This document shows, piece after piece, positions 1,876 to 64,000 of a stretch of DNA of 64,000 nucleotides. The stretch spans positions 2,845 through 66,844 of the IMG/VR virus record IMGVR_UViG_3300028392_000065; one strand, written 5' to 3'. Both the position numbers and the translations under genes were made by a program. The notes below the pieces were generated by a model that had not been told where the DNA came from, did not search any database, and was given only the letters and a program-made list of their open reading frames with translations. Position 1 is the stretch's first letter; the number at the start of each line of letters is the position of its first letter. This DNA is from a virus.

Positions 1876-2619
1876 TTACATTCCGTTCATTCGGCGATAG
1901 CGCTCCATATCCGTAGCAGATTGGTTAATCTCCTGGCGGCGAGCACTTTCGTGTTTAGACCTAAGACCGGCAACAGTTTGACGGCGTGCACTGATAGTAC
2001 CACGCGAGCGTTCATGTGCGTAAATAGACCCTGCAGCACCCAAAATACCTGCAGCCATAACTCCAGTACCAGTACGTGAAATAAACTTACCTTGACGAGC
2101 CAACTTAGCACTTTTAACTCTTTGATCACCATGACGCTGAAGTTCATGCAAAGCAGCACCACGCAACCCAGAATCTTTACCTTCAGCAGCCAAACGACGA
2201 CCCGCAACAGTTAGACCGTGCTGAGCACGCGCTGCTTCATTAGCATGTTCGGAAACACGCAAAGGAAAACTTTGATGCTCAGAAGTAGCTTGCATAGTGA
2301 CATTAGTTCGAGGCTTAGGGCCAGAGTTCCATTTATGATAAGCAGCTTCATTACTACGATGTGTTGCCAAATCTTTCAAATTAGTACGGCGCTGACTATT
2401 TATGTCTTTAAACTTTTTAGCAGCATGCCGAGATTGAGCACTAGCGCGATCAGAGCGGTAATTAACCGTACCCCCATAAGCCTTTACACCTAAACCGGAA
2501 CCAGCAACACCTAAGCCAGCTTCCATACCACGGTTAGTTTGCTTCTTAGAAGACTTATCCCACTCAGAATTACGTCCAACTTCAGAGTTACCGCCAAAAC
2601 GTGACTGCGTAATTGTCAT
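1876..2619 (-). CDS. basic Gly/Ala-rich virion-associated protein
   Basis: 247 aa, R/K-rich with Gly-rich hydrophobic stretches; lies between TerL and portal. Confidence 0.65.
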   Translation of the reverse strand: MTITQSRFGGNSEVGRNSEWDKSSKKQTNRGMEAGLGVAGSGLGVKAYGGTVNYRSDRASAQSRHAAKKFKDINSQRRTNLKDLATHRSNEAAYHKWNSGPKPRTNVTMQATSEHQSFPLRVSEHANEAARAQHGLTVAGRRLAAEGKDSGLRGAALHELQRHGDQRVKSAKLARQGKFISRTGTGVMAAGILGAAGSIYAHERSRGTISARRQTVAGLRSKHESARRQEINQSATDMERYRRMNGM

Positions 2620-5600
2620 GACCCATTCCTTTTAGCCTTAAGTGATCCAACAGCAAGTGCTGCACCACCAAGTGCAAGACCCGCACCAAGATTACGTCCA
2701 GAAACTTGCATGTGGGGAACATTATGTAAAGCATCACGCGCTTCCTTAGCATCAATCTTGGCCTTGTTAGCCGCATTTGTTGCATTGTTAGCCAAAGATT
2801 CGTGATGCTGCAACATTTTGCGCTCGTTACCTGCCCTAAAGAAACCAAAAGGCTTAGAACGAGCAGCTTGATAACTGGCTTGAGAACTAGCAACATTCTT
2901 ATTAGCTTGGTTAGCGAGTTTTTTAGCGGCAGTAGCAGTAGCGTTCTTGGCATCAGCCGCAACAGGAGCAGTCGTAGGTAACTTGCCAGAATTACCCAAA
3001 GTCTTAAGACCATAAGCAGTAGTGCCAATACCCGCAACTAAACCAGTAGTAGAAGCCTTAGGTGCCCTAAAACCAGACTGGTTGCCATATTCATCGTAAG
3101 CCTTGTAAATCTGGCTACCCAGATAACCACCGCCAACAATAGAAGCACCAGCCAAAGCACGATAATCCCTATTTTCACCAAGATTAGGCTTAGGCTTCAC
3201 AGATTTAAGAGGTTTGTTCGTATTTTGGCCAACATGAACACCCTTGATTGAATAAACACCATTATTAGTAGGAACAATAGAACTACCAGGCTTAGAAGGC
3301 GCTGGGACAGCATTACTACCAGCACGAACATTAGTAGCAGTAGCGCGACCGCCAGTAGGGACAAGACCACCTGCTTTAGGACGAATAGCAAGTTCCTTGC
3401 CCTTAACTGCTTGACGATGGTAAGCCATACCAGCCTCATCAGCCATAGCCTTACGATCAACAGCAAACGTGCCACCTTGACCACCCGGAACAGCCAACTT
3501 AGTGCGAGGCCTAGCAGGAGCAACATCCTTTAACGGTGTACTTGTGCGAGGACCAAAAGCCTCTGCCCTTTTAGCATCTTTAGCAGCAGAAGCTTGAATG
3601 CTCCCAAGAATTTCTGCTGAAGACCGACCGCCACGAGCGCCTGACCTAGCACCTCGAACTGCATCAGCAGCACCCCGAAGCACACGCGAACCACCAAGCG
3701 ACGCCTTATTCACACCACCCTGCGACATTCTATGAGCACCATAAACACCACCAGTACCAACCAAAGAAGTACCGGCAATAGCAGCATCACGCTTCAACTT
3801 CTTAGTAGCCCCATATTTAACACTCATGTAAGGGATATTTTCAGCATCGAGCTTAGGCTTCTTAGGCACATAATGAACAGGATTTTCAAGATAACGCTGA
3901 CCAAGTTTAGTTTCAGCAAACCTATCTAAACGAACACCTTTATTTACAGTGCTCAAACGATTCTGATTGTACTTATGAGCCCCATAAGCCACCGCACCAA
4001 TAGCACCAACCCCAAAAGCAGCAGCACCAATACGCCTAGGAGTAAACCGAACATTACGAGTAGCAGTACCCTCAACAGAAGGAGAAGCAACAACAACCCC
4101 GTGTGTAGGTCGAACCAACGGCTTCACAGTGCTATGGCCATTAGCAGTAGCCGCAGCATGCTCCGCTTCCATACGCTCAAGATCACGAAAAACACGCTGC
4201 TGAGGATTCACCGAAGGCTTACGCTTCTTAGCCTTAGACACCTCATCATACGCATAACCAACTGAACCAGCGCCACCAAAACGTGACTGCTCCGCAAGGG
4301 TATCGTCACCAAAAGACTTATTAATACCTTGCTTTTTGTAGTGCTTAAGGTACTCATCCATGTGCTTCTTACGATGCAAAGTTTGACCTACCATACCGCC
4401 GGCAACCGCAGACCCATAACTAGCCGCAATAGCACCACCACCAATAGCCAAAAGATGCTTATTCTTAAGGTTAGCAATCTTATTTGGGTGCTTTGCAATA
4501 TAGTGGCGTGCGCCATATGCAGCGCCAGCCAAAGGCAAAGTGCCTAAAGTGGTACCAAGGTTTTGACTAGCAGCAGACCTAGCCCTTAAACCAGCAGGCG
4601 CTTGCTGAGCAGCTCTAGCCGTACCAATTGCTCTACCTGCAATAGGGATAGTAGACAAATAAGCAATCTTACGACCATCACGTAAAACTTTAGACTTAAG
4701 TTCTTGATCTGATTTATGCACACTCATAGCAGCAGCCTTTCTTTTAGCGTCAGCCTTAGACGAAGCGCCCCAAGCATTTAATGATAGCAATAAGCGAGTA
4801 GGTTCACCATTAGGTTTATGTTCGGGGCCCGGCATGTTACCCATACGAGCAAGAAAAGAAGCCCGACGAGGATTATTGCCAGCCTTAACTGGTGGCTTTA
4901 AATTATGACCCTCGGCTTTAGCAGAAGCACGACCCTTAGCGTTTAGGCCGCCATTAGGATTCTTGCCCTCTTCACGAGTCCACGCAGGAGTATCAAACTT
5001 TTTTACTTTATGAGCACCATAAGCGCTACCGCCCACCACAGTAGAAGCAACAGCCGCATCGGTTGCAATGTGCGCAACATGTGCCTCACGCGCATCTTTG
5101 ACTGGCTTCACTTTACGAGGGTCCCCAAATACATAATGTGACCTATGTGGGGTAAAACTAGATACACCGTCATAGCCCATACGTCGTGCCGTTGGCATTT
5201 CCCGAATGAAAGCACGAGACTTGCCGCCCATTGCACGTCGTTGTTGCCTATGAAGCATCTCTGCGTATAATCGTCTATCATGTTGATCAATGAACTTGGC
5301 ATCATGAGGAATTTGTACACGCACAACCTGAGGCTCTCCATTGCGCTTGCCCCTAGCATATTCATTGGCAAGATCACGGTCACGTGTTAAATAAACGCCC
5401 GCACCATTGTTACCTGTAGAGCGATTGCGCCCCTTGCGTGTCAACCCATCGCCAGGTGTATTATCCCCATCAGTTCGGCGTTTGTACGAACTTGACGTCT
5501 TGTAGCGAATGTTGGGGTCAGCCAATTTGAAACCGTCCGCATGAATCCTTGCCGCATCAGCACTGTTCGTACCGTGCAAGAATTCGTTAGGTGCCAAAGG

Positions 5601-5654
5601 CTTATGCGGAAAATAACGCTCAATTAGTTTGCGCTTGGCAGAAAAAGAAGACAT
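2616..5654 (-). CDS. large modular virion protein: N-terminal ADP-ribosyltransferase-like domain plus repeated cationic Gly-rich modules
   Basis: 1012 aa; FLHGT...GAGVYLT...ANEYA...GYDGV ART-like signature; a GGLNAKGRA...RRASFLARM phage domain; modules separated by [VI]xK[ASG]. Confidence 0.7.
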   Translation of the reverse strand: MSSFSAKRKLIERYFPHKPLAPNEFLHGTNSADAARIHADGFKLADPNIRYKTSSSYKRRTDGDNTPGDGLTRKGRNRSTGNNGAGVYLTRDRDLANEYARGKRNGEPQVVRVQIPHDAKFIDQHDRRLYAEMLHRQQRRAMGGKSRAFIREMPTARRMGYDGVSSFTPHRSHYVFGDPRKVKPVKDAREAHVAHIATDAAVASTVVGGSAYGAHKVKKFDTPAWTREEGKNPNGGLNAKGRASAKAEGHNLKPPVKAGNNPRRASFLARMGNMPGPEHKPNGEPTRLLLSLNAWGASSKADAKRKAAAMSVHKSDQELKSKVLRDGRKIAYLSTIPIAGRAIGTARAAQQAPAGLRARSAASQNLGTTLGTLPLAGAAYGARHYIAKHPNKIANLKNKHLLAIGGGAIAASYGSAVAGGMVGQTLHRKKHMDEYLKHYKKQGINKSFGDDTLAEQSRFGGAGSVGYAYDEVSKAKKRKPSVNPQQRVFRDLERMEAEHAAATANGHSTVKPLVRPTHGVVVASPSVEGTATRNVRFTPRRIGAAAFGVGAIGAVAYGAHKYNQNRLSTVNKGVRLDRFAETKLGQRYLENPVHYVPKKPKLDAENIPYMSVKYGATKKLKRDAAIAGTSLVGTGGVYGAHRMSQGGVNKASLGGSRVLRGAADAVRGARSGARGGRSSAEILGSIQASAAKDAKRAEAFGPRTSTPLKDVAPARPRTKLAVPGGQGGTFAVDRKAMADEAGMAYHRQAVKGKELAIRPKAGGLVPTGGRATATNVRAGSNAVPAPSKPGSSIVPTNNGVYSIKGVHVGQNTNKPLKSVKPKPNLGENRDYRALAGASIVGGGYLGSQIYKAYDEYGNQSGFRAPKASTTGLVAGIGTTAYGLKTLGNSGKLPTTAPVAADAKNATATAAKKLANQANKNVASSQASYQAARSKPFGFFRAGNERKMLQHHESLANNATNAANKAKIDAKEARDALHNVPHMQVSGRNLGAGLALGGAALAVGSLKAKRNGS

Positions 5655-41184: not shown

Positions 41185-41685
41185 TTATGCTCCTGTAGTA
41201 ACTGAAGAATCAGTAGACAAAATAACTGTAGGGTTACGAGTTACAGTCATGTTGACAGTAGCACGCCGGCTGTGCAAAAACTCTAACTGCGTGTTAATAG
41301 TAAAGTCGGCAGCAAAACACTGCCAAATTTGTTGTGCATTACCTAAAGTAACTTTAATCAAAAACTGGTTAGCTCGAATAGCGTCAACCAAAGTTTGAAT
41401 ACGATTACGAACAGTAATGTTATCCGTACCCAAAACATAAATATTTAATGCCTCTGTCACATTTTCGCGCAAAGCATTTACCACATACTTACCTTCAACA
41501 AATGGGTTAGTAACCTCGTCTTTACGAAAAGTAGTAGCAGAATTTTCAAAAGAACCTTTAGCGATTTTGTAAGAAGAACCGTCATTAACATTTAACCATG
41601 CGCCAGTATAAGCAGAAACACCGCCACTGTTATAAATGTTGTCAGTAGAAATACTAACCTTTACACTTAAACCTGCATCAGCCAT
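41185..41685 (-). CDS. distal tail protein-like
   Basis: immediately after the tape measure gene. Confidence 0.55.
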   Translation of the reverse strand: MADAGLSVKVSISTDNIYNSGGVSAYTGAWLNVNDGSSYKIAKGSFENSATTFRKDEVTNPFVEGKYVVNALRENVTEALNIYVLGTDNITVRNRIQTLVDAIRANQFLIKVTLGNAQQIWQCFAADFTINTQLEFLHSRRATVNMTVTRNPTVILSTDSSVTTGA

Positions 41686-44600
41686 TAGTTACCCACCGGT
41701 TGCATCAAACGTTGAAGTTTTTGCTTAGCGTTAACCTTACGTAAAAATTCCTCAGGATCATTAGACTGAACTGTAATAGGCCCATTGATTTGCGTTGAAT
41801 GGTCATACTGTTGACTCGTCACATTACTCACGTGACTAGTGTAAGAAGCCATGCGAGAAGTAATAGCTTCACCACTGCTCACATAACCGCCACTAGCAAA
41901 CTTATTATTGTTCAAAGCATCAAGGAACTGAACACCATAATTCTTGACAGCATCAGCCTTAACCACATACTCGCCGTTAGAAAGCATTGCGGGAATAGAG
42001 TCAGACTTACCCGTACCAGGCCCAGTAATAAAACCGCCTTCGGCTTTGTACTTTACCGTACCATCTGGATTTGTTTTAGGGTTAACTTCGCTAGGAGCAA
42101 CAGAAAAGTGGGCTGCCCCGCCACGCCCACCTTTAATCTTTGTTGACCAATGCCCCTGATGATAAGTATAAGTTGCTCCCTTATAAACACCAGTGTCGCC
42201 TTCTTCAGGGGAACGAACCGTAATTGTTCCACCATGATTAGGGGCAGTATATTGCCCGGCTACGCGAATGTTGATATCAGGAATATTGCCCAACTCATCG
42301 TTAATACCTTGGATTAAAGAATTCATAGTGTCAGTAGCAGCTTTACCCGCAACAGTAGGCATGCCATTCAAAGCAGCTTGCAAACGCCCAGAAGCACTAT
42401 CCCCAGCAACCTGAACATTATCGCCAAAATTTAAAATATCATTATATGCGCGAGATTGCTGAGTAGCCAACTGCTGCCTCATATCAGCAATTTGAGTTTC
42501 ATGAATAGTTTTAGCACGCGCAACAGCTTTCTTATAATCTTTCTCAGAATAATCCATTTGCTGTTTAAGATTTTCACGATCACGCTCAGCCTGAGTGTTG
42601 AACGGACTCTTTTGATACTCTTTAGACAAATTCATACGAGTTTGAACTTCTTTATTTGTATCGGCAACCAAACCCTTATTTTGCGACATATCCTGCAACA
42701 AACGCGCAACTTCTTGAGCATTATTAGGGTTCATCAAATCCAAAGTGCGAATAGCGTCATCAGAAAGACCCATCTTCTTCAGTTTTTTAATATTAGCCAT
42801 TTGCTGACCCAAAGAAATGTTTTGCTGCTTCAAATTACCCACAGTACTATAAGCATCCGTAGTTCGAGCGGCCGCAATACGTTCAAAAGGATTACTAAAA
42901 GACTTAGCAAAATCTTGCGTCTGACGCTTAACATTCAAATAAAACGCTTTATATTGGCGTTGACGATTTTCAAGATAATCAGCCTCTTGATACGCAGATT
43001 GACGCTGATAATCACGGCTAGCATGAGAAAGACTAACTTGAAAATCTTCATTTTGTTCAGCAACCTGATGATTCAAATTAGCAATTTGCTTAGCCAAACT
43101 ATTAGCCCTGGCTAAACCGCTCGCAGTGATGTCAACTTCAGCTTGACGCGCATCCTTAGCACCTTGTTCAGTAGGAGCAGCGCTTTTAATAGCATGAACA
43201 CCGACACCAACATCGGAAATAATGTTTTGAATACCTCCGGTGCCAGATTGCTGTAAAGAACGCGTCTGCATAGTCTGACTAAAAGCAGTAGTCAAACCAG
43301 CAAATTCAGAAGATGAAGCAGCAAGATCCTTGTTACCTAATTGCTCACTTAAACGCTGCAGTGCCAAAGTAGCGTCACCGCCAGCTTTCGCTAAATACTG
43401 GTTTGACAAAGAAGCCCCATAAGCAGCTTGAGCCGCTAAATCGTTTTGTTTAACGTAAGCATCAATTGCTTTTTTAGTGTCCGAACTAGCGCTGTTATAC
43501 AAAACAGGCGAAGCAGCAATTTGTTGAACAGTTTTCTTTTTACTTGAAGCATAATCTTCCGCAGCAAAAAGCGAACTAGTACTAGATAAATCTTCTCCTC
43601 CAGCTTTACTAGCAGAAATACGCAGAGACTCTGCTTCAGCAGGAGTAGTTTCAGAAGACTTTAAAGACAAGCGAGTTCTAGCTAAATCTTTCCAATTGTG
43701 TTCAGTCAGATATTTGCCAGTAGCGTTTAAATTCTTTTTGTTAAAAAAGCCATTTTTTATAAGCTCATCCCAAGTTTCTGGAAGAGATCCATAACCTTTC
43801 GACATCAATCCTTCAACGTCTCCAACGTTAACAACAGTAGTTCCAGTTTTTGCCAAAGTTTCATTAAGCAACTTAGTCAAAATAATGCCTACTTTTTCGT
43901 TGGCTGTCTTACCACCAAAACCAAGCACACCGCCAGTATTAACATCCCCGTGGTCTGCAACTCTACGCGCACCAGCAATCAAATCAAGAGTTGTCTTTGT
44001 GTTAATTAGTAAAGGATTTTTATATACAGATCCTGCCGTATCCTCAGTTGTCTGTATCTCACCACGAATTAACTGAACAGCATTATTAAACCTATCGCTA
44101 GATCCAGTTCTAGGCATAGCGTTTGCTGCAGCACGGAACAAACCAGCAAACTCTTTAACAGCATCAGGCTTTTTTAAATAAGTAGTAATTTCGTTTTCAA
44201 CATCTTTTTGAAACAGCGAGTCACGCGTATGTATGACATCCTGCATCATCCTACTTAATTGCGCTGGGTTGTTGCCAGAAGCATGATAAAGAGCAGTTAT
44301 TTGAGCCGCAACATCTTTAGCACTAGTTTGCGGGCCAAAATCTTGACCAGCCGCATAAGAAGAAGATTGCGCGTTAGCAATAGCATCATTGGCTGCACGA
44401 TCATTACCATCAAAATGTATCGCATGCTGCCAATCTCTTTGCTCGTTAGCGTAACTCGTAGCCTTAGCATTAACGTCCGTAGTTGATGAAGCCGTAACGG
44501 TTTGGTAACCCAAAGTGTTAGTTTTTGCTGCGTAAGCATTGTAAACAGAGTTAGCATCAGCCATACCAGTACCATTGAGACTTTTATTAAATTCATTCCT

Positions 44601-46676
44601 TTGCTGCTGCATTTTAGAAAAAATAGCCATGCCAGCCATAACAGCAAACATAGGTAGCATTTGCCCAAGCATTGTTTGATTACCCTCAGCAGTACGTAAA
44701 ATGCCCATAGGGCCAGAAGCTCCACCTGCACCACGAGTGTTTACAAACTGCCCAACAGCACCAATTTTCTTAGCAGTATCTTTCAAATTAACGGCAGCAT
44801 CCTGCGCAGCATAACCTAAAGCTTTAAGGTTCTTAGCAAAACCTGCAGTGCCGGCATCAGAAACAAACCCAGTCATTGCAGCGATACGCTTCTGCATGTT
44901 AGTCATGTCGGCCGGCAAATTACCCAAAGGCATAGGAGCATGCACATTTGCGTTATAAGCGTTTAACTGGCCACGAGCATTTTCGCCAACAATTGCACGC
45001 TGCTGCTCCATAGGTAAAATACCACCACCAGCCTTCAAAGAAGCCATGTTATTTTTGTAAGCTTGGCTCTCATCAATCCTTAACAAAGGCTTTGAAATAG
45101 AATCACGAGTCCAATTAGACTCAAGATTAGCTACGCCACGTATGGCAGCGCCTGCAACACCAAAAGGATTACGCACAACTTCTTTGGCAACACCCACAGG
45201 AGTAGGAATACTTTGATACTGCTTATATAACTTTTCAGCTTGATTGATCATAGACATTTCTTTAGTCTGCGCACCAAGCCTATACAGTAGGCTAGATGGT
45301 GGCGGACCAGTCATGCCTGCCGCCAAACGACCTTCGGTAGTGGCAATACCTTGAGCCGCTTCAGAACGACCCAACCTAAACATAGACATCTTAGAAGAAT
45401 CTTTAAGCCAACTTAAAGCCAAACTACCCATAGAAAGCAAAGCAAGAGTTTTTAAAACACCAGCAATAGCAGAAAGAACGGGCAATACAGGACCAAAACC
45501 AGCAAAAACCCCAACAAGTTTTCCAATAGCGGAAGCGGCACCATTAGCTAAACCTAAAACACCACCCAAAAAGCCCAAAAAAGGTTTGCCTGCAGTAGCA
45601 GCAGTTTGAGAAACTTTTTCGTTCAACGTTTGTATTTTGTCATTTACACCATTCAATGCATCAGACGCTGCAACGTTAGTAGACCCATTATTAAAAGCAG
45701 CAGTAGCAGCACCAACTACTTGACGCAAATCACCCTGCTTGGCAATAGCCTGAATAGACTTCAAAGCATTAACAGACCCAATACCCAAATTATCAAGCGT
45801 CTGAGCCGCAGCAGGGCCCTGCTTATTAATAGCATCAGTAAAACGGTAAATAACTTCAGTAGGATCATTCTTAAAAAGTTCAGCCAAAGAATCCGTAGTC
45901 ATATTCATGGCCTTGGCATATTCTTTAATTTCAGGAGAACCTGTAGTTACAGACTTTTGCAAATCCAGCAAAACCTTGTTAAAAGCATTAGCAGATCTAA
46001 AACCATCCTCGCCCATGCGAGAAAACGCTGTAGACATGCCAAAAACGGCACCTTCGCTTACACCAGCAATAGACGCAATAGGCGCAATAGCTTTTGAAAA
46101 AGCCAAAACTGAAGATGCCGAAGCACCAAACTTAGCCGAAACAGTAACTAAAGAGTCACTAAAACCCTTAACCATACTATTTGAATTACCAAAAGACTTA
46201 GTAAGGTTAAGCATGTCAGTAACCATGCCAGAACCCCACTCACCAGTGGCGGCTTGAAGTTTAATAAACTCACTGCCAAGTTTGCCTACCTCTTTAGTAG
46301 TCGTAACACCAGCCGTAGTCAAAGTTTTAGTGGTAGCGATTGCCTTGTCCATACCTACAGGAAAGTCTTTAGCAAACTTCATAGTAATGTCAGACAGACC
46401 TTTAAACTGTTTACCAGCGGCTACAGCCGTTGCAGACACAGTAGACAACTGCTGCTGATAAGCCGCAGCAGTAGCAACAGCAACCTTATTAGACCCAGCA
46501 ACACTTTGCAGACGTTGAGTAAGACTTAAAAAAGCACTATTAAGCCCATTTAATTTACCAACAGCACTGTCCGTGCTTTTAGCCATTTGCTGGACTTGAG
46601 CAATACCTTGAGAAAGAGCAGCGTTAAGAGGAGCAACATTAGCATTAAAATCAATTGAAACATCTTGATTAAGCAT
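41685..46676 (-). CDS. tape measure protein
   Basis: 1663 aa, helical and Ala-rich; TP901-type core; C-terminal GGFITGPGTGKSDSIPAMLSNGEYVV. Confidence 0.93.
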   Translation of the reverse strand: MLNQDVSIDFNANVAPLNAALSQGIAQVQQMAKSTDSAVGKLNGLNSAFLSLTQRLQSVAGSNKVAVATAAAYQQQLSTVSATAVAAGKQFKGLSDITMKFAKDFPVGMDKAIATTKTLTTAGVTTTKEVGKLGSEFIKLQAATGEWGSGMVTDMLNLTKSFGNSNSMVKGFSDSLVTVSAKFGASASSVLAFSKAIAPIASIAGVSEGAVFGMSTAFSRMGEDGFRSANAFNKVLLDLQKSVTTGSPEIKEYAKAMNMTTDSLAELFKNDPTEVIYRFTDAINKQGPAAAQTLDNLGIGSVNALKSIQAIAKQGDLRQVVGAATAAFNNGSTNVAASDALNGVNDKIQTLNEKVSQTAATAGKPFLGFLGGVLGLANGAASAIGKLVGVFAGFGPVLPVLSAIAGVLKTLALLSMGSLALSWLKDSSKMSMFRLGRSEAAQGIATTEGRLAAGMTGPPPSSLLYRLGAQTKEMSMINQAEKLYKQYQSIPTPVGVAKEVVRNPFGVAGAAIRGVANLESNWTRDSISKPLLRIDESQAYKNNMASLKAGGGILPMEQQRAIVGENARGQLNAYNANVHAPMPLGNLPADMTNMQKRIAAMTGFVSDAGTAGFAKNLKALGYAAQDAAVNLKDTAKKIGAVGQFVNTRGAGGASGPMGILRTAEGNQTMLGQMLPMFAVMAGMAIFSKMQQQRNEFNKSLNGTGMADANSVYNAYAAKTNTLGYQTVTASSTTDVNAKATSYANEQRDWQHAIHFDGNDRAANDAIANAQSSSYAAGQDFGPQTSAKDVAAQITALYHASGNNPAQLSRMMQDVIHTRDSLFQKDVENEITTYLKKPDAVKEFAGLFRAAANAMPRTGSSDRFNNAVQLIRGEIQTTEDTAGSVYKNPLLINTKTTLDLIAGARRVADHGDVNTGGVLGFGGKTANEKVGIILTKLLNETLAKTGTTVVNVGDVEGLMSKGYGSLPETWDELIKNGFFNKKNLNATGKYLTEHNWKDLARTRLSLKSSETTPAEAESLRISASKAGGEDLSSTSSLFAAEDYASSKKKTVQQIAASPVLYNSASSDTKKAIDAYVKQNDLAAQAAYGASLSNQYLAKAGGDATLALQRLSEQLGNKDLAASSSEFAGLTTAFSQTMQTRSLQQSGTGGIQNIISDVGVGVHAIKSAAPTEQGAKDARQAEVDITASGLARANSLAKQIANLNHQVAEQNEDFQVSLSHASRDYQRQSAYQEADYLENRQRQYKAFYLNVKRQTQDFAKSFSNPFERIAAARTTDAYSTVGNLKQQNISLGQQMANIKKLKKMGLSDDAIRTLDLMNPNNAQEVARLLQDMSQNKGLVADTNKEVQTRMNLSKEYQKSPFNTQAERDRENLKQQMDYSEKDYKKAVARAKTIHETQIADMRQQLATQQSRAYNDILNFGDNVQVAGDSASGRLQAALNGMPTVAGKAATDTMNSLIQGINDELGNIPDINIRVAGQYTAPNHGGTITVRSPEEGDTGVYKGATYTYHQGHWSTKIKGGRGGAAHFSVAPSEVNPKTNPDGTVKYKAEGGFITGPGTGKSDSIPAMLSNGEYVVKADAVKNYGVQFLDALNNNKFASGGYVSSGEAITSRMASYTSHVSNVTSQQYDHSTQINGPITVQSNDPEEFLRKVNAKQKLQRLMQPVGN

Positions 46677-46688
46677 CAGTCACTCCTT

Positions 46689-47042
46689 TCACATAGGTCT
46701 TTTAACCTCGGCGCCACGCATTTGCTCAGCTTGATAAGCCGGCATTAATACCATTGTAGAGCCTGGAAGCCTATCATTCTCGTCTGTAGCACGATCCTTT
46801 GTGTAACAGCCCCAACACTGCTTAACAACAGGCTCGTATGCATGACGGTCCTGTTCCCACTCCCAATCAGAAGTACCACACAATTGACAGCGAGAACCAT
46901 TTTCTAAAAGATAAGCCGCCAACTTGGCTCTATCCTCACCAGCCCACTCCAACAACGCTGAATGAGGCATGCCGTTTTCGGAACACCACTGCACCTCCAT
47001 AAAGAAGGTTGGGTCATACCTTAGACGGCTTCGGTGAAAGGG
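46689..47042 (-). CDS. tail assembly chaperone, -1 frameshifted extension (GT)
   Basis: The -1 frame is open from slippery C CCT TTC (47036-47042) into the 46689..47000 ORF. Confidence 0.8.
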   Translation of the reverse strand, partial: PFHRSRLRYDPTFFMEVQWCSENGMPHSALLEWAGEDRAKLAAYLLENGSRCQLCGTSDWEWEQDRHAYEPVVKQCWGCYTKDRATDENDRLPGSTMVLMPAYQAEQMRGAEVKRPM

Positions 47043-47407
47043 ACATCAAGCCCGCTAGAGTTCACCTCAACACAACCAAGAAACAGTTCAGTCAACTCGC
47101 CACGAGACCAGTCATTAGAAGTCCAAATTTGCGTAGCCTGATCAAGAGTCAAAGCGGGAGTGACAGCAGAAGCCGCAATCAAAGCAGGAGCAAAAGTATC
47201 AGAATTATAAGTAATACCTTCACGCTTTTGAGCCGGGGTAGGCGGATGAGCCGCCAACAAATCATCATAAGCCTTCGAGCCAATAGCCCTAAGAGTGACA
47301 ACAAAATCAGTCGTACCAGACTTACCAGTAGGTACATTAATAGTAATTTCCTTGGTGCGAGCAGGCTTCTGAAGCAAGTCTTCCAAAGTAGCAATCTTAC
47401 GTGCCAT
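47021..47407 (-). CDS. tail assembly chaperone (G)
   Basis: SD AAGGA then MARKIAT; between major tail and tape measure; ends at the slippery site. Confidence 0.82.
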   Translation of the reverse strand: MARKIATLEDLLQKPARTKEITINVPTGKSGTTDFVVTLRAIGSKAYDDLLAAHPPTPAQKREGITYNSDTFAPALIAASAVTPALTLDQATQIWTSNDWSRGELTELFLGCVEVNSSGLDVPFTEAV

Positions 47408-47469
47408 GATATATTTCCTTCGCTTGGTCTGTTTAAGCTTACGCTTATTACGAGGTGTAGGGCCTGACA

Positions 47470-47520
47470 TAAAAAAAGTATAGGGGGAACGCCGAGAGAG
47501 GAACGACGCGCCCCCTATAC
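47470..47520 (-). terminator. intrinsic terminator after the major tail gene
   Basis: GTATAGGGGG...CCCCCTATAC then T7 on the minus strand. Confidence 0.75.
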
Positions 47521-57080: not shown

Positions 57081-57764
57081 CTAAGCATCGATTTCTTTAC
57101 GCTTGCCTTTACCATGAATAGAAAAGCCAGTAACTTCGCCCTTCTTAACCTTCTGCCAAGCCTCATCATCATGAATCTTATAACCAACCCACCAGCCAAC
57201 AGGAGTTGAATCAGGCAAACCCATCTTTTCAATCTTTTCAGGAGTCATAACAAAAGACTCAATCATGTCAGAAGCATGGAAAGGATTTTCCCCATCGCGG
57301 CGATGCTGATGCCCACCCTTACGAGACTTCAACACATACTCGTAAGCAGCGCGTTCCATCTCATCAGGAGAAATCCAATCACCTTGACGATCAACAACAG
57401 GCTGACCATTAAGTTCAACAACCGAAGCCCAACCAAAAACTTGTCGCTTATCCTCATCAGTCTTAGCAAACTCGCCAGCCCAAACAACAGAAACCCCATC
57501 GTTCTTACTCATGGCATCAGTATTATCAACAATGACGCCATTCTTTTTAGGGTTAATCATTTTAGGAACCAAACGACCCTTACGGCCACTCCCCCGCGTA
57601 TTAACATCTGACGGATCAGGGTTCATTTTAGAAATACCATCAACCGTGTACAAATATTCCCATACTTCTTCGGCATGAACCGAATCACCAAAAAGGGTTT
57701 TGCAAAGCTCGACAAAGCCAGGGTCAACTTCGTGTAGTGCCTTAACAATTTTTTGGGAATCCAT
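57081..57764 (-). CDS. XkdF-like prohead serine protease
   Basis: K.DEDKRQVFGWA...DRQGD....E.ERAAY...H...ESF...GWWVG....D...W..VK.G..TGFSI.G. Confidence 0.85.
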   Translation of the reverse strand: MDSQKIVKALHEVDPGFVELCKTLFGDSVHAEEVWEYLYTVDGISKMNPDPSDVNTRGSGRKGRLVPKMINPKKNGVIVDNTDAMSKNDGVSVVWAGEFAKTDEDKRQVFGWASVVELNGQPVVDRQGDWISPDEMERAAYEYVLKSRKGGHQHRRDGENPFHASDMIESFVMTPEKIEKMGLPDSTPVGWWVGYKIHDDEAWQKVKKGEVTGFSIHGKGKRKEIDA

Positions 57765-57832
57765 TGAGCCTCCTGAATACATACTTACCTCTATTCTGCT
57801 ACCTTTTAAACCTAAATGCATTAGTCCGCAGG

Positions 57833-60478
57833 TTACTTATTTAACATTTTGACCCTAAAAGCATTAACCGGTGGGTTACTAATGATATCTTGCTCGCCAG
57901 CATCTTCCATGAACTCTAAATCTACATCTGGCGTTCTTAAAGAAAGCAAATCTGTTAAATCATATACATCGTCAATTTGCTCAATAATACCATTGCCGCT
58001 CGCCAACGACTCAAGCTCTTCTTTGCTGCCTAAAATTATTGTAAAACAATTAGATGCGTCTACTTCAGTCTGGCGACCGTGTTCATCTTCTATTGTCACC
58101 AAACTTTCGCGTGGAATCTCAAATACTTCCACCTTGTAGTAAGTACTGTCGCCATCAAACGGAACAACGCGATACTCAGTAGTTTGGAACGACCTCCAGT
58201 TTGTGTCGCGTTTATCAATAACGTTTTTTCTATTTGCTTCACGCGCAATAAGTAAAGCGTCTTCATGGTTTAAATGCTTTCGCAAATGAGAAGGGGATGA
58301 TCCAAAATCTTCTAAATTGTTCGGATCAGCGAAAGACGCAAAATCTGCACCCTTAGAATAAGAGTAAGGCATTTCTGCAAACGCCCAATCATCCATGTAA
58401 TAATCCGACTGCGTGATAATTTCATCAATGACACTGTGTTTCAAATCTTCAGGATTAGGTGCAAAAAAACCGTGGTAAGCAAAAAGGGCGTCAAACTCTT
58501 TCTGATAATCTCCACTATGCGCCTTACTTGAAGATGCTTGCTTGGCAAAACTATCTGCAAAATTCATCAAATCGTTATTGTCATAAATACCATAAACGTC
58601 AGATTCCTCGCGCAATATTCCAGGGGAAAAATACAATGCGCGAGTATCCTCGTCAAACTCAGGAGGTTTAGATTCATTAATAGCATAAGCACCATACGAA
58701 CGGCTCTTCATTTGACGGTTCTCATATCCGCGAGATTCTAAAACCTTCTCAGCATTTTTAGGCTTAAACAAATCCTTAACATTATCTTGCTTAGGTTTAA
58801 AAGCACTTTTTAAATCAGACAACTTAGCTTCCGGCTTTTGTGCTGCAACCTTACGCGACTCAGCCAAACGACGAGACTCAGCCAGATACTTAGCATCCTT
58901 AGCGTCACGCCTATCACGACGCTCACGGCGAGCCTTACGATCCTCTGGAGTTCTTGTCTTATCCTTAAAACGCCCACCTTCACCGCGAGGATGCTCGTTA
59001 TTAAAATCTTGTAACTGTTCCCCATCAAGATTTTTATAAATGTTAGGACCAACTGGCTCAACAAATTGACCTTCATTGGCTAATTCCACGTCAATAGTCT
59101 CAAGGTACAAGCCAGTACCAAACCCATTAATTTCATAAGGCTCCAAACGGGCATTTTCTATGTACCCATTGGGAGCAATACGATTAATGTTTGAAAAAGT
59201 AAACCTAGCGTTAGGCACTATTTCTTTAACATCAAAACCTTTGTCATCATTGTGCGCAGAGCCCACACGAGGCATATCCGCATTAACAGGAGCACCTGGA
59301 GGAATACGTACCATGTAGTAATCATTATCAAGGGTACGAGCAGTCACGTCACCAAAAAGATACTTACCATTAATAGACAAATCTTTTTTAGTAAACCCTG
59401 TTAAACCAAACTCAATTGCCAACCCAGTATAAAAACTTCCACTTTGGCTAACAACAGAATTAGCAATAGTTTTAGGGATTAAACAATAAAGTTCCATATC
59501 AGCAATAACATAAGGAGGGGTCTTTTCTCCTGGTGGACTATCGTAAGCGCCCATATGGAAATTAGTTGGCATTTTAGTCAAAGCCATACCTTCATATGCT
59601 CGACTCTTCATTTCACGATTCTCATAACCACGAGACTCTAAAACTGGAGCACTAGTCTCCTGTGGTTTAGGTTTAAATAAATCTCTAACGCTACTCGCAG
59701 GTTTAAAAAGGTCTTTTAAATTACTTTGTGTAGACCTATCTTGCGTAACTGCTGGCTTACCTACCTGACGATCACGAACATACTTAGCGTCTTTAGCATC
59801 TTTAGCATCACGACGATCACGCCTATCCCGGCGAGCACGCCTATCACTAATCTCAGAAATAGGCTTAGGCCCATCAGGCTTATCAGTAAAACGCCCACCC
59901 TCACCGCGAGGATGCTCTCTTTCATTAAAATTTTGTTTAGAAATTAACTCATCAGTCATTAAAGCTTCTCGATTACCTAAAGTAGACGCATAGTTCATCA
60001 ACTCGCGATCAGCGTAATCTTCACGAACAATAGGCTGCACAGTTGCCGACTTCATGACAGTTGCATACTTACCTAAACGGTCAAGTGGCACCCCGTGAAC
60101 CTCAGCAGCACGCTCAATAGCATTAGGCCACGGCATGCCTCCATTAGTCCACGTAGTAATCAATCGCTCTGTAGCTTCCACGGCTTGCTTATGAATAGCC
60201 TCAGCCAATAACTCACCGTACTTCTTAGAAGCATCGCCCATCACAGGCTTAGTTGCATTACCAAGTGCTTTTGAAATTGGCTCTAAATCAACACCGGAAA
60301 GTACTTCGTGTACATGATGTACATCAATAAGCGTAGAGTTTGCCAAAGGTTTTAAAACATTTTGCACAAGCCCGTGATAGCCCAATACAGCAACACCAAC
60401 GCCATTAACTACATCAGAATCATCAACAAGCGCTAAGGCATCACGCGAAGACTGCGAATCTGCCCACCATCGGTTCAT
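57833..60478 (-). CDS. large head-associated protein with a duplicated module
   Basis: 881 aa; two copies of HPRGEGGRF...RRDRRDAKDAK...VLESRGYENR.MKSR.Y. Confidence 0.75.
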   Translation of the reverse strand: MNRWWADSQSSRDALALVDDSDVVNGVGVAVLGYHGLVQNVLKPLANSTLIDVHHVHEVLSGVDLEPISKALGNATKPVMGDASKKYGELLAEAIHKQAVEATERLITTWTNGGMPWPNAIERAAEVHGVPLDRLGKYATVMKSATVQPIVREDYADRELMNYASTLGNREALMTDELISKQNFNEREHPRGEGGRFTDKPDGPKPISEISDRRARRDRRDRRDAKDAKDAKYVRDRQVGKPAVTQDRSTQSNLKDLFKPASSVRDLFKPKPQETSAPVLESRGYENREMKSRAYEGMALTKMPTNFHMGAYDSPPGEKTPPYVIADMELYCLIPKTIANSVVSQSGSFYTGLAIEFGLTGFTKKDLSINGKYLFGDVTARTLDNDYYMVRIPPGAPVNADMPRVGSAHNDDKGFDVKEIVPNARFTFSNINRIAPNGYIENARLEPYEINGFGTGLYLETIDVELANEGQFVEPVGPNIYKNLDGEQLQDFNNEHPRGEGGRFKDKTRTPEDRKARRERRDRRDAKDAKYLAESRRLAESRKVAAQKPEAKLSDLKSAFKPKQDNVKDLFKPKNAEKVLESRGYENRQMKSRSYGAYAINESKPPEFDEDTRALYFSPGILREESDVYGIYDNNDLMNFADSFAKQASSSKAHSGDYQKEFDALFAYHGFFAPNPEDLKHSVIDEIITQSDYYMDDWAFAEMPYSYSKGADFASFADPNNLEDFGSSPSHLRKHLNHEDALLIAREANRKNVIDKRDTNWRSFQTTEYRVVPFDGDSTYYKVEVFEIPRESLVTIEDEHGRQTEVDASNCFTIILGSKEELESLASGNGIIEQIDDVYDLTDLLSLRTPDVDLEFMEDAGEQDIISNPPVNAFRVKMLNK

Positions 60479-61458
60479 GACTTAACCAAACTACCCTTTT
60501 TAGTAGGAACAATACCCAACGAACTTAAAGCACTTTTAACGTCTTGCGCAATAAAAGTCGATGAACCAACCTTATCAGGAGACGTACCACGTAAACGTCT
60601 AGCCCTAGCAACAACTAGAGCATCATGATAATTACGTACACCACCAGCATTATCACCCAAAGCCGCCACATACTTCATAGCCGCCACAGAGGCTTTCTGA
60701 CTATCAGCATTAGCAAACTTATCGCCATTCTTATCCATAATAGAACCAAGAATTTTATTATGATCTGCAACCGAATAATCAGGGAAATGAATAGTCTTAG
60801 GAAAACGCCTATTAAAGCCAGGGTTAACATCCATAAGTTGCTTCAACTCATTAGGATAACCAGCAATAATAACTACCGTATCTGAACGGTTTTCTTCCAT
60901 TTCCTTCATCAACTGGTTAGCGGCGCGTTTACCGTATTCATCTTGAGCAAGCATGTAAGCCTCGTCAACAAAGACGACACCGCCCTTAGCTTCCTTAAAG
61001 ATTTCTTTAACCTTTTGTTCAACAGTATTTGAATATCCACCTGCAAGGTCAGCGCGGTCAACAACCGTAACCTTATTAGTAGGCAAGATGCCAGTAGCGT
61101 GATACAAGTCAGCAATGCTATGCGCAACCGTAGTCTTACCGGTACCCGGATTACCAGACAAAACAAGATGGTTAGTAACAGGGCTAGAAGCCAAACCAAG
61201 AGCTTTACGCCTCTGAGCATCCTCAGCCAAACTGACCAAAGAATCAACCTGATCCGCTACCGACTCCATACCAATCATCGAATGAAGTTTGGCACTAATC
61301 TCGGCAACCTTATCTCGCTTTACAGGAGTGGTAGGTTTAAGCGCCGGCGCTGTTGCACCACCTGAGCTAGCGGATGGTGCTTCGACACGACTTGCACCCG
61401 TCGGGACGAGAAGCCCAGGTTCTTTGACAGATGGCTTTTCGCCATCAAATCTTTTGGG
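60475..61458 (-). CDS. CbbX/SpoVK/EccA-type AAA+ ATPase domain, probably made as a -1 frameshift extension of the upstream protein
   Basis: HLVLSGNPGTGKTTVA, GGVVFVDEAY, IIAGYP, NPGFNRRF; frame open from the slippery site at 61452-61458. Confidence 0.85.
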   Translation of the reverse strand, partial: PKRFDGEKPSVKEPGLLVPTGASRVEAPSASSGGATAPALKPTTPVKRDKVAEISAKLHSMIGMESVADQVDSLVSLAEDAQRRKALGLASSPVTNHLVLSGNPGTGKTTVAHSIADLYHATGILPTNKVTVVDRADLAGGYSNTVEQKVKEIFKEAKGGVVFVDEAYMLAQDEYGKRAANQLMKEMEENRSDTVVIIAGYPNELKQLMDVNPGFNRRFPKTIHFPDYSVADHNKILGSIMDKNGDKFANADSQKASVAAMKYVAALGDNAGGVRNYHDALVVARARRLRGTSPDKVGSSTFIAQDVKSALSSLGIVPTKKGSLVKS

Positions 61459-64000
61459 GCCTCTTCACCACCTACCTTATTTAGATAACTTACCGCAGTA
61501 GCAAGAGACCAACCTTTTTGATAATCCATAGCTCTGTCCACAACAACATCTTCATTAATACCGAAGAAGCCGTAAGAATCTAAACCATTTTCATTTAAAC
61601 CAAGAGCGGCTTGACCCTCTTCGGTGTCCAAACCAAGAGCACTTCGAATTTTGTCGCGTGGAATTTTAGTAGCCTTGGCTAAATCATCTACTGTAGGTGT
61701 ATCTGTACCGAAAGACACAGATGACAAACCTTCTTTCAAAGACTTCAGGGTGCCAATGTTTTCTTTAGCCAACTTGTTAATTGCCGAATCACTGCGCTCA
61801 TCGCCTTTTTCGTCATACAACAAACTTGAAGTTATGTTAAAGGTTTTCTTGTTTGCGGGGTTTGTAGCAAAAGTACCGAGATCGCTCTGACTACCAATGG
61901 CTTGAATTTCATCAAACAATTGCGGTACAGAACCAGTGTAAAAAGCGCTATCTTCACCATCTAAAGGATTGATAAAAGGATGCTCGGCGTTTACAACATC
62001 AGACAGTTTTTCACCAAACTCAGAAACATAGTTAGCAACATCTTCGTAGGTATCAAAGTCTGGTCCCAAATCTTCAGGATCAGTAGATCCGTAAATACTT
62101 TTAGCCATGCTACTAACCGCTTTACCATCAGATAAAAGTTCAGCCACATAAGGCCCATCAGACTCAATAACTTTAGGAAGTAACAAAGCGTTATCGCGGT
62201 TCATTAACCAACGCAAAGCTTTAGTTTTATCAACCTTTGCTTCTTCCCAACTACCATTAGCATCACGGACCACAGGGGGAATAGCGCGTTCTGGCATAAC
62301 CATACCATTAGAGAACGTTTCAATTTCAGGTTGGAAATCAGCCATACGAGCCTTGTTAGCATTCATAATCAAACCTGCAAGCCCGCCCGTAGGCAAAGGA
62401 GTGCGCTCTATCGGGGCACTAGCCCCACCTGCTACCTCAGACTTTGCACCAGGCGTACCCGTAGAACCAGCGGCACCAGCAGTGCTCTTAGGCTCGGTAG
62501 CCCCATCAGATTCGTAGTCAAGACTTGAAGCTTTCGTACGCATCTCGCCCGCAGTTCTGTAATAACCACCGCGTAGTGAATTGGCCTTCATCCCAAACGG
62601 ACGAACATAACCCTTATCACTTGAATACAACTTTTGGCGAGCCCCTGCAGCACCCGACTGACTAAGGTTCTGCAAGAAACCCTCACCCGGATTATTACTA
62701 GTCAAAGGATGATAAGAAACGTTACGAATGTAGTAAGGGAACTGCTGTTGCAAAGTCTGCAAAGCAACCTCATAGCCCTTAGAGTTCAAAGACAACTCGG
62801 AAACACGCTTATTGCGCTCCTCACCAACTTTTTCATCAAAAACATCAGAAACACGACGTTCAAAACGGTCCTTAGAATAATTACGGCCCTCGTCCTCAAC
62901 CTGCTTACGCGCTTCCAACTCAATAGCCTTAAGCGTTTCAGAATCAAGGTTCTTGCTCTTTTCACGAGCATTATCGAGCATGCGCTGATTTACGTCCTTA
63001 AAAGACTCACCATTAGGACGCTGTGCAACAACCATACGCGCACGAGAAGCAATGATTTCTTTTTCCGCAGGAGACAAGTCACTAACATAAAGACCCGAAG
63101 CATCAACAGCATCAAGAATCTTTACATAACGGTCATACAATTGACGAGCACGATCAGTATTAGCCCTACCGCCACGGAAATTAGGGTCAAACTCAAGCGA
63201 AAACACACCCGAACTAGACACCACTGTAGCCATACGCGTACCAGTACGAGCAGCCGTGTAAATGTCCTCAGAAGTCAACCCACCCTGCTGGCGAGTACGC
63301 ACATACTGGCCGCCCTGCAAAGACTTTAAGTTCTTAAAATCAAAAGGTAAATAATGGTCATCAGCATAACCCACAGACTGAGAAACAACGTCACCATCCG
63401 CATCAATAATTACACCCTGCGAAGGAAGGATGTTACCAGCCTTACGGCTAACTTCAGCAATAAAAGGATCCGTAGGTAAAGTGTTCAACAAGTGACGAGC
63501 AGCAACATCCGCACGAACATTTAAACGCAACTCATCTGGTGTAAAAGCGCCCCCGCGACTGCGAGAAAGGTAATCAATTTCATGACCAGCGGCCTGCATC
63601 ACTAAATCGTTGCTAGAAGAACGATTCTTACCTTCTAATGCTGCGTCACGAATTGTTTGAGCAATTTTACTTTGCGGGTCACGTGATTCGGCAGCAATCT
63701 CAACAGCGCGCATGCTATTACTATTAAACTGTCTAACTAAATCTAAATCTGGTTCTTTTTCCGTACCACGGTAACGATATGCGGCTTCCTGAACATAAGG
63801 ACCTAAAACCTTTTCAGCTTCAGGGCCAACTTCACCCATGAAACGAGCAAAATGACCAAATTGATTAGTCGGATCTATTTCATATAAAACATTTCCACCG
63901 GTTCTAACCGTGTCAAAGAAACGAGAAAGCACAGAACGCGAGCCATCTTTTGGCTTTGCTAGGCTGTTTTGAAAAGCAGTACGAGTTTCAGGGTTAGTCA
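61320..64000 (-). CDS. very large head-region protein (5' end outside the window)
   Basis: reading frame open from the window edge to TAA at 61320 (>890 codons). Confidence 0.8.
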   Translation of the reverse strand, partial: TNPETRTAFQNSLAKPKDGSRSVLSRFFDTVRTGGNVLYEIDPTNQFGHFARFMGEVGPEAEKVLGPYVQEAAYRYRGTEKEPDLDLVRQFNSNSMRAVEIAAESRDPQSKIAQTIRDAALEGKNRSSSNDLVMQAAGHEIDYLSRSRGGAFTPDELRLNVRADVAARHLLNTLPTDPFIAEVSRKAGNILPSQGVIIDADGDVVSQSVGYADDHYLPFDFKNLKSLQGGQYVRTRQQGGLTSEDIYTAARTGTRMATVVSSSGVFSLEFDPNFRGGRANTDRARQLYDRYVKILDAVDASGLYVSDLSPAEKEIIASRARMVVAQRPNGESFKDVNQRMLDNAREKSKNLDSETLKAIELEARKQVEDEGRNYSKDRFERRVSDVFDEKVGEERNKRVSELSLNSKGYEVALQTLQQQFPYYIRNVSYHPLTSNNPGEGFLQNLSQSGAAGARQKLYSSDKGYVRPFGMKANSLRGGYYRTAGEMRTKASSLDYESDGATEPKSTAGAAGSTGTPGAKSEVAGGASAPIERTPLPTGGLAGLIMNANKARMADFQPEIETFSNGMVMPERAIPPVVRDANGSWEEAKVDKTKALRWLMNRDNALLLPKVIESDGPYVAELLSDGKAVSSMAKSIYGSTDPEDLGPDFDTYEDVANYVSEFGEKLSDVVNAEHPFINPLDGEDSAFYTGSVPQLFDEIQAIGSQSDLGTFATNPANKKTFNITSSLLYDEKGDERSDSAINKLAKENIGTLKSLKEGLSSVSFGTDTPTVDDLAKATKIPRDKIRSALGLDTEEGQAALGLNENGLDSYGFFGINEDVVVDRAMDYQKGWSLATAVSYLNKVGGEEAPKDLMAKSHLSKNLGFSSRRVQVVSKHHPLAQVVQQRRRLNLPLL

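Follow-up and report, generated by a model that had tools for sequence, protein, structure and literature searches.

A predicted programmed -1 frameshift between a giant head-module protein and an AAA+ ATPase in a virus genome

Does the AAA+ ATPase encoded among the head genes of the IMG/VR virus record IMGVR_UViG_3300028392_000065 have a gene of its own, or is it made as a C-terminal extension of the giant protein whose open reading frame (ORF) precedes it? The stretch analysed here, referred to as the window, is the right-hand 64 kb (64,000 nucleotides) of this 66,844-base record, and all features of the site in question lie on its minus strand. An earlier note on this DNA had predicted that a -1 frameshift near the end of the giant ORF gives rise to a second, ATPase-bearing isoform. 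Our analysis supports that prediction through the phasing of the slippery sequence in related loci, a hairpin downstream of it, the open -1 frame, the lack of a Shine-Dalgarno (SD) sequence at the annotated ATPase start, homology to CbbX that begins ahead of that start and natural fusions of the two proteins. We conclude, from sequence comparison, that a programmed -1 ribosomal frameshift in all likelihood joins the giant head-module protein to the ATPase. One gene would thus very probably yield a protein with and without a motor.

The slip site and the start of the ATPase

In its own (0) frame the giant ORF reads GGT GGT GAA GAG GCC CCA AAA GAT across the site. The features of the junction, in the order in which a ribosome would meet them, are as follows.

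61320..63998, minus strand: 3′ part of the giant head-module gene, 892 codons in the 0 frame, open at its 5′ side and ending at TAA 61322-61320
61468..61473, minus strand: SD-like AGGTGG, within TAAGGTAGGTGGTGA, ending 9 nucleotides (nt) before the heptamer; candidate upstream stimulator
61465..61467, minus strand: stop codon TGA of the -1 frame, 7 nt upstream of the heptamer
61452..61458, minus strand: slippery heptamer C CCA AAA, an X XXY YYZ sequence phased with the 0 frame
61430..61446, minus strand: stem-loop GAUGGC-GAAAA-GCCAUC with a stem of 6 base pairs (bp), 5 nt after the heptamer; candidate downstream stimulator
61320..61451, minus strand: dual-coding overlap, in which the 0 frame encodes a 43-residue tail and the -1 frame the start of a linker
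61279..61452, minus strand: linker of the -1 frame, RFDGEK...KVAEISAKLHS, rich in Pro, Ala and Ser and holding no start codon
61276..61278, minus strand: ATG encoding Met63 of the -1 reading; it is the earliest start codon of this frame and the one chosen by gene callers
60475..61278, minus strand: AAA+ ATPase domain of the CbbX/SpoVK/EccA type; the stop, TGA 60477-60475, and the start of the following gene, ATG 60478-60476, overlap

The earlier note had put the in-frame heptamer at 61458-61452, which proved right to the base, and the hairpin at 61446-61430, 5 nt downstream, is also as it described. The SD-like AGGTGG that it reported is present (61473-61468); it ends 9 nt before the heptamer and not about 8. 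The TGA just upstream of the site (61467-61465) and the open -1 frame beyond it, running through the linker into the first helix expected of the ATPase, were likewise found. This frame is free of stops from 61464 to 60478, which amounts to 62 codons to ATG 61278 and 329 codons to TGA 60477-60475, with no ATG, GTG or TTG ahead of ATG 61278, and its translation is RGPKRFDGEKPSVKEPGLLVPTGASRVEAPSASSGGATAPALKPTTPVKRDKVAEISAKLHSMIGMESVADQV. The linker contains the motif LLVPTG (LVPTG at 61410-61396). In the 0 frame, the Lys codon of the heptamer is followed by 43 residues, DLMAKSHLSKNLGFSSRRVQVVSKHHPLAQVVQQRRRLNLPLL, and the 44th codon is TAA 61322-61320, in agreement with the 44 codons counted before.

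Stops are frequent in the -1 frame of the giant ORF of the window (126 in 846 codons), and a run of 60 codons without one, as lies between the slip site and ATG 61278, has a probability of ~6e-5. The window hairpin is matched or beaten at only 0.57% of 8771 control positions in the same 9 kb. A search of Rfam gave nothing meaningful at 61250-61600. The AGGTGG region is predicted to form a duplex of -9.7 kcal/mol with a generic anti-SD sequence and may act as an upstream stimulator. G-rich GGTGGTGA-like elements recur upstream of the heptamer in relatives, but they also encode a conserved Gly-Gly-Asp/Glu. Taken together, the stop-free stretch, the rank of the hairpin and the invariance of CCCAAAAG in related loci (see below) indicate that the site is more than chance. 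In E. coli the V_VVA_AAR motifs, to which the heptamer belongs, rank with the most efficient, and C_CCA_AAG reaches up to 54% with a strong stimulator (PMC4066793).

The change of frame could also arise in the RNA, through polymerase slippage on the C4A4 run that would give transcripts with one base more or less, and the site does consist of two short homopolymer runs. Transcriptional slippage as known from bacteria takes place on runs of ~9 A or T (PMC5009743), whereas here there are 4 + 4, and a phased X XXY YYZ sequence with a hairpin 5 nt downstream has the features of ribosomal slipping. We consider slippage in the RNA very improbable, and a ribosomal shift better fits the anatomy of the site.

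The domain that follows the linker carries Walker A (GNPGTGKT, 61155-61132) and Walker B (VVFVDE, 60978-60961) motifs and matches PF00004 with an E-value (E) of 7e-17 and 62.5 bits (cut-off 21.2). Its best NCBIfam matches are TIGR02881 (7e-54), TIGR03922 (6e-52) and TIGR02880 (7e-48), with 182.5, 176.9 and 163.3 bits against equivalog cut-offs of 422.95, 466.65 and 459.25, respectively. These scores are far under the cut-offs, and therefore the ATPase is none of SpoVK, EccA and CbbX proper. The CbbX structures 3SYK and 3ZUH were matched at E 7e-40. The alignment with 3SYK spans residues 57-312 and that with TIGR02880 starts at residue 51, both upstream of Met63, by 6 residues in the case of CbbX. 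Since homology to CbbX begins ahead of Met63, a product started at ATG 61278 would be without part of the N-terminal helix of the family. Moreover, ATG 61278 has no SD. Its duplex with the anti-SD is predicted at +0.6 kcal/mol against a window median of -5.5 (56 gene starts), and 54 of the 56 other starts in the window have an SD as strong or stronger.

These observations bear on the view that the ATPase is a separate gene, translated from ATG 61278 either by ribosomes that re-initiate after ending the giant gene 41 nt upstream or by weak independent initiation, with the heptamer kept for the ...APK peptide that it encodes. ATG 61278 is the first start codon in its frame, each of the 14 relatives aligned has the same Met and a gene call that begins at it, and the GG(D/E)xxPK peptide is widespread in the family. 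The close relatives of the ATPase in a large protein collection (P0003-P0008, 58-75% identity), together with 7 further relatives, have gene calls that start at the same Met. A separate gene is hard to square with a start that has no SD and with CbbX homology that begins before the Met. The same Met is also kept in fusions of the two proteins in one frame (as SMVGM and SMIGM), where no start is needed.

Conservation of both frames in related loci

Related loci were gathered through ATPase peptide or DNA motifs, with the slip site never used as a criterion. By tblastn, a homologue of the giant protein was found in 22 loci beyond the window and its own copy (L001), and the junction was examined in the 24 loci that hold both proteins, including the window and two partial loci. 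They fall into three arrangements.

Split type, in which the ATPase is read in frame -1 relative to the giant ORF, 17 loci (14 non-redundant): the window, L002, L126, L151, L083, L072/L073, L115, L004/L005, L090, L042, L011, L003, L044/L045 and L099
One-frame fusions with the heptamer, 4 loci, still with CCCAAAAG and a hairpin: L032, L030, L010 and L075
One-frame fusions without the heptamer, 3 loci: L128, L079 and L006

The giant ORFs of the split type are ~1100-1190 codons long, ATPase identity is 33-53%, and the 0-frame stop lies 27-66 nt before the equivalent of Met63 in every case, which is also what re-initiation would lead one to expect. CCCAAAA with CCA in the frame of the giant ORF was found in 17 of 17 split-type loci, and in 8 of the 14 non-redundant ones the heptamer follows the last -1 stop at a distance of 7-10 nt. 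Across all heptamer-bearing loci, CCCAAAAG is invariant (18/18 non-redundant, ungapped alignment) while its flanks vary. This holds even for loci of 63-73% G+C, in which CCA and AAA are unusual codon choices. In 15 of the 18 non-redundant loci the heptamer is followed, at a distance of 4-8 nt, by a perfect stem of at least 5 bp, and all 15 hairpins are within the best 1.2% of positions of their own locus. The stems differ in sequence (GAUGGC/GCCAUC, GCCCCC/GGGGGC, GGCUCC/GGAGCC and GCCUCC/GGAGGC), which argues for selection on the structure. The hairpins are out of register in the ungapped alignment (A7), so there is no single consensus structure. Conservation of the heptamer and hairpin in related phages, which the earlier note had proposed to look for, is thus found in 17 of 17 split-type loci for the former and in 15 of 18 loci for the latter.

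The -1 frame is open from the slip site onwards in all 14 non-redundant split-type loci. In 11 of these the density of -1 stops is at least 0.09 per codon (0.09-0.16), and the 52-81 codons from the slip site to the ATPase are nevertheless stop-free, with P between 7e-3 and 6e-7 per locus. The other three, of 63-73% G+C, are uninformative in this test. Moreover, a comparison of L073 with L083 shows 116 of 300 nt differing before the heptamer and 32 of 280 nt from the heptamer on, a drop in divergence such as constraint on two frames would produce. From the 0-frame stop to the Met codon, 6 synonymous changes and 1 non-synonymous change in the -1 frame separate these two loci. In the central part of the overlap, ~150 nt are near-identical between them (L073:4758-5040, compared with the reverse strand of L083), with 39% of positions differing just upstream. 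Dual coding fits this pattern, and a recent recombination may also account for it.

The LVPTG motif of the linker is kept across the split loci and is duplicated in L073 (positions 4824 and 4869) and L083, where third codon positions of the -1 frame account for the differences between the copies, which are synonymous in that frame. A G-x-LVPTG motif also occurs elsewhere, namely in a 1012-aa (amino acid) protein of the window (GGLVPTGG, ~3365) and at L192:6337, in the protein downstream of a related junction. It may be a protease or docking site, or may be due to chance, given that about one chance hit is expected in the window.

Re-initiation at ATG 61278 needs no 52-81 stop-free codons, no LVPTG motif in a linker and no drift restricted to synonymous changes, and it leaves the hairpin at a fixed distance and the CCA AAA of the 63-73% G+C genomes unexplained. 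We therefore regard a separate ATPase gene as improbable and favour a frameshift as the route by which the ATPase is translated.

The 0 frame beyond the slip site is conserved as well. Its tail has the motif SSRxVxVVSKxHPL...RR..LPL(L/V), with an end of its own, across the family. This bears on the possibility that an assembly indel in the homopolymer run, or decay of the gene, has split what was a single ORF. Such an artefact would agree with the position of the split at a homopolymer run, with the one-frame fusions in relatives and with the fact that reads do not overlie the site. Two sequencing runs, both of DNA and none of RNA, were found to share sequence words (0.08 and 0.04 of them). 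Their contigs cover 61000-61211 and 61639-61789, and as the slip site lies outside both they give no evidence either way. The same split in the same phase is found in 17 loci of separate assemblies, and an indel error does not produce a conserved tail with its own conserved end. On the strength of this tail an assembly indel can be excluded, and we regard an artefact or decayed gene as hardly credible. The split is better read as part of a programmed frameshift.

Several points nevertheless weigh against a frameshift. The loci are related to each other and the counts above are not numbers of independent events, and the six closest relatives (P0003-P0008) stand outside the DNA comparison. The Met of 61278 is kept in all relatives, and some independent initiation may occur there. 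Conservation of the DNA could be explained in part by the conserved GG(D/E)xxPK peptide. By the definition of at least 5 bp, no simple hairpin was found in three of the 18 loci (L002, L045 and L099). Lastly, the downstream fold of the window is unremarkable against shuffled sequences (z -1.5 over 45 nt and -1.3 over 79 nt).

Among 50,697 phage records, screened for cultured relatives, neither megablast nor tblastn with the giant protein and with the 881-aa protein encoded after the ATPase gave a match, and the ATPase alone found 11 distant records. No close relative was found in viral contigs with a single ATPase or alignment A2 as query.

One-frame fusions and the giant-protein family

The seven one-frame loci are distant from the window, with 29-33% giant-protein identity over the best tblastn segment, which covers roughly half of the query. 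Their sequences indicate that a protein of body plus ATPase is a real, selected product. The earlier note had named simple in-frame fusions in relatives as evidence against a frameshift. Such fusions are present in 7 of the 24 loci, and that much of its reservation stands. Four of them, however, keep the heptamer and hairpin and have an immediate stop in the -1 frame, and we read them as support.

In these four (L032, L030, L010 and L075, mutually 56-76% identical) the heptamer is found at L032:4955, L030:4922, L010:4946 and position 4017 of L075 (reverse strand), and a -1 stop follows it after 1, 1, 1 and 4 codons, respectively. A stop so near has a chance probability of 0.015, 0.029, 0.016 and 0.095 in the same order. 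Stops in the -1 frame are rare in these ORFs, in which G+C at third codon positions is 84-92%, and the immediate stops are made with rare T-ending codons. A GC-rich hairpin lies 5-6 nt downstream of the heptamer, one base further than in split loci such as L083. This layout is that of a dnaX-like shift to a stop, of which the split loci have the reverse, and the four loci may still frameshift. In dnaX itself such reversals are described, and a single nucleotide can swap the roles of the two frames when efficiency is near one half (PMC5009743).

We considered whether the 0-frame tail motif of the split loci is present upstream of the slip site in the fusions. A hidden Markov model built from 74 tails found it in none of the 7 (best E 0.21), and this was rejected. 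A census of fused forms, by ATPase search for longer proteins, was swamped by multi-domain cellular ATPases and was also abandoned; 0 of 120 hits hold the giant-protein profile, which is uninformative on the frequency of fusion.

A further arrangement is seen in L192, a contig binned with a Microlunatus genome. It has a giant gene with an in-frame CCCAAAAG (L192:5054) and RLVPTG in the -1 frame, and its -1 ORF of 180 codons has no ATPase match and no convincing Pfam family. What the shift appends may therefore not be the same module in all lineages.

The giant protein itself matched no Pfam, PHROG or NCBIfam family, with no Pfam hit at E<=0.01. A profile of it matched 637 cluster representatives at E<=0.001, of which 509 at E<=1e-30, among 1.84 billion. 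A G-rich...PK motif is present in the last 110 residues of 77 of 120 closer members and in the last 120 residues of 35 of 103 further representatives, counts that refer to proteins only, with the codons unseen. Against PDB sequences the profile gave a single chance-level match, and the protein atlas gave nothing usable. The full-length model (predicted local distance difference test, pLDDT, 84.7) had no Foldseek match in the PDB at E<=0.001 and only helical-hairpin matches, at Z<=7.2. The core domain (L002:2713-3960) is alpha/beta, is modelled with a pLDDT of 91.5 and has invariant DHYLPF and GGxYxRTR motifs. Its model matches the PDB at Z<=5.2, with weak resemblance to deaminase and JAB folds (Z 4.2-4.5). 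Against BFVD it gave weak matches to 'minor capsid protein' (E 1.5e-3 and weaker, template modelling score 0.2) and to JAB/MPN and deaminase-like models, which are leads only. Membership of the MuF / SPP1 gp7 family is not supported, with 0 of 41 members matching MuF at E<=1 and a probability of 0.1 from hhalign against SPP1 gp7. The two families are nonetheless alike in their position downstream of the portal gene and in having a variable C-terminal module, separate or fused, which is the ATPase in most of the present loci and the 180-codon -1 ORF in L192. MuF-like and VIP2 genes are also found separate or fused (PMC10885494).

Head-gene context, proposed mechanism and parallels

A stretch of 292 residues of the giant protein is encoded at both contig ends, the two versions showing 2 differences (L190, that is G000:C1:2-1738, minus strand, against 63120-63998 of the window). 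Therefore, the genome is circularly permuted or terminally redundant, and the 66.8 kb record is probably complete and not 86% complete. The 5′ part of the giant gene is at the other contig end (L190), and joining the ends gives a product of 1179 aa for the 0 frame and, by computation, of about 1461 aa for the frameshift fusion. Two genes follow the ATPase.

57833..60478, minus strand: 881-aa gene without a known family; its start codon and the ATPase stop overlap (ATGA)
57081-57821: XkdF-type protease gene, after the 881-aa gene

The order of genes is large terminase, three genes of which the third encodes the 1012-aa protein, a 247-aa gene, portal, an 86-aa gene, a 394-aa gene, the giant gene with the ATPase, the 881-aa gene, the XkdF-type protease, four more genes, the major head protein and the tail genes. 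The giant gene is thus located in the head block, two genes past the portal gene. The portal was assigned by a match to phrog_113 (5e-86) and the major head protein by one to phrog_1005 (4e-87). In relatives the place of the 881-aa gene is taken by a gene of 764-832 aa. The 1012-aa protein (2616-5654, minus strand, between terminase and portal) matches DUF6321 (6e-19) and, weakly and below the cut-off, ART-PolyVal (ADP-ribosyltransferase of polyvalent proteins; E 0.0011), and it may be a polyvalent-type virion protein.

A candidate tail-chaperone pair is located at 46689-47470 (minus strand), upstream of the tape measure gene (41685-46676). Its 149-aa ORF has C CCT TTC in frame four codons before its stop, and the -1 frame opens just before this heptamer and runs into a 103-aa ORF. 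The ATPase site as a tail-chaperone G/GT frameshift was rejected, given its place among the head genes, 15 kb away from the tape measure gene, in a genome with a separate G/GT-like pair. The remark of the earlier note that the ATPase site would be a second recoding site in this genome holds as sequence, the other being this candidate at 47042-47036.

We propose the following mechanism. Ribosomes translating the 1179-codon gene would reach C CCA AAA and be slowed there by the hairpin 5 nt downstream, while pairing of 16S rRNA with the upstream AGGTGG-type element would perhaps hold them in place. A fraction would slip back by one base, with tRNA-Pro, first paired with CCA, re-pairing with CCC and tRNA-Lys meeting AAA again in the new frame. 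The remaining ribosomes would add the conserved 43-residue tail and stop, giving the 1179-aa form. Those that slip would read a 58-residue linker and the complete CbbX/SpoVK/EccA-type ATPase, giving the fusion of ~1461 aa. A single gene would in this way supply isoforms without and with the motor in a fixed ratio. The slipping itself, its efficiency and which of the isoforms is the major one are matters that we infer.

What the two forms do is less certain still. With low confidence, and by analogy, we suggest that the shared N-terminal body may direct the two forms into one head-pathway assembly, to which a few copies would bring an ATP-driven remodeller. CbbX-type rings act by pulling on the C-terminal peptide of a protein. 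The short isoform ends in a conserved basic tail (...RVQVVSKxHPL...RRxLNLPLL), and in the long isoform an AAA+ ring replaces this tail. The two isoforms could then form a pair of motor and substrate. The shared body would bring a small number of long copies together with many short ones in one assembly, where the long copies would use the tail of the short form to thread or unfold it. We regard this as speculative and rather unlikely. If it were true, threading would, for example, serve to place the short form in the procapsid or to prepare it for ejection. Such a family would alternate freely among a shift that extends, a shift that stops and a fixed fusion, could also swap the appended domain (L192), and would constitute a polymorphic head cargo system dosed by frameshifting.

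Among known systems the closest in layout is E. coli dnaX, with its tau and gamma products (PMC5009743). It likewise has an SD-like element upstream, a heptamer ending on a Lys codon and a simple stem-loop a few bases downstream, and its two products share an N-terminal body. The phage family has both polarities, in the split loci and in the one-frame loci with an immediate -1 stop. It differs from dnaX in that the heptamer is C CCA AAA and not A AAA AAG, the shift in the window gives the longer product and the proteins are unrelated to DNA polymerase III. Another parallel is offered by lambda gpG/gpGT (tail chaperone), the major head and tail proteins of Lactobacillus phage A2 and the SPP1 tail protein, in which a -1 slip near the end of a virion gene likewise gives, at a set ratio, a C-terminally extended second form. 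In these three phages the extensions are short structural or decoration parts or the chaperone T part (PMC5009743, PMC10885494, PMC5221750). The site described here differs in that a whole 267-residue AAA+ enzyme is appended. The head frameshift of phage A2 reportedly uses the same heptamer.

The proteins themselves invite two further comparisons. CbbX (3SYK, 3ZUH), EccA1 (9LUR) and SpoVK, which form one branch of the AAA+ ATPases, share Walker A and B with the phage ATPase, which differs in being joined to an N-terminal body of 1136 residues. Retroviral Gag is a structural body that a -1 slip extends with enzymes to give Gag-Pol, in a eukaryotic setting and with a pseudoknot as stimulator. 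The likeness is that of a body with or without an enzyme, and co-packaging of the phage ATPase form would be an extrapolation from it.

In summary, the site would dose a whole ATP-driven remodelling enzyme onto a large head-module protein, whereas the known phage cases are mainly tail chaperones and a few capsid or tail proteins with short extensions. A literature search, with most subscription journals and supplementary files outside it, found no paper describing the system. For annotation this means that gene callers, which cut the ATPase at Met63 in every relative seen, would miss the real product. The giant protein defines a sizeable uncharacterised family of 637 representatives, without a Pfam domain and with no cultured member found. 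Moreover, its loci would offer a natural experiment in the evolution of recoding, in which one signal of heptamer and hairpin would lengthen the product of certain lineages and shorten that of others, and has disappeared from the fixed fusions.

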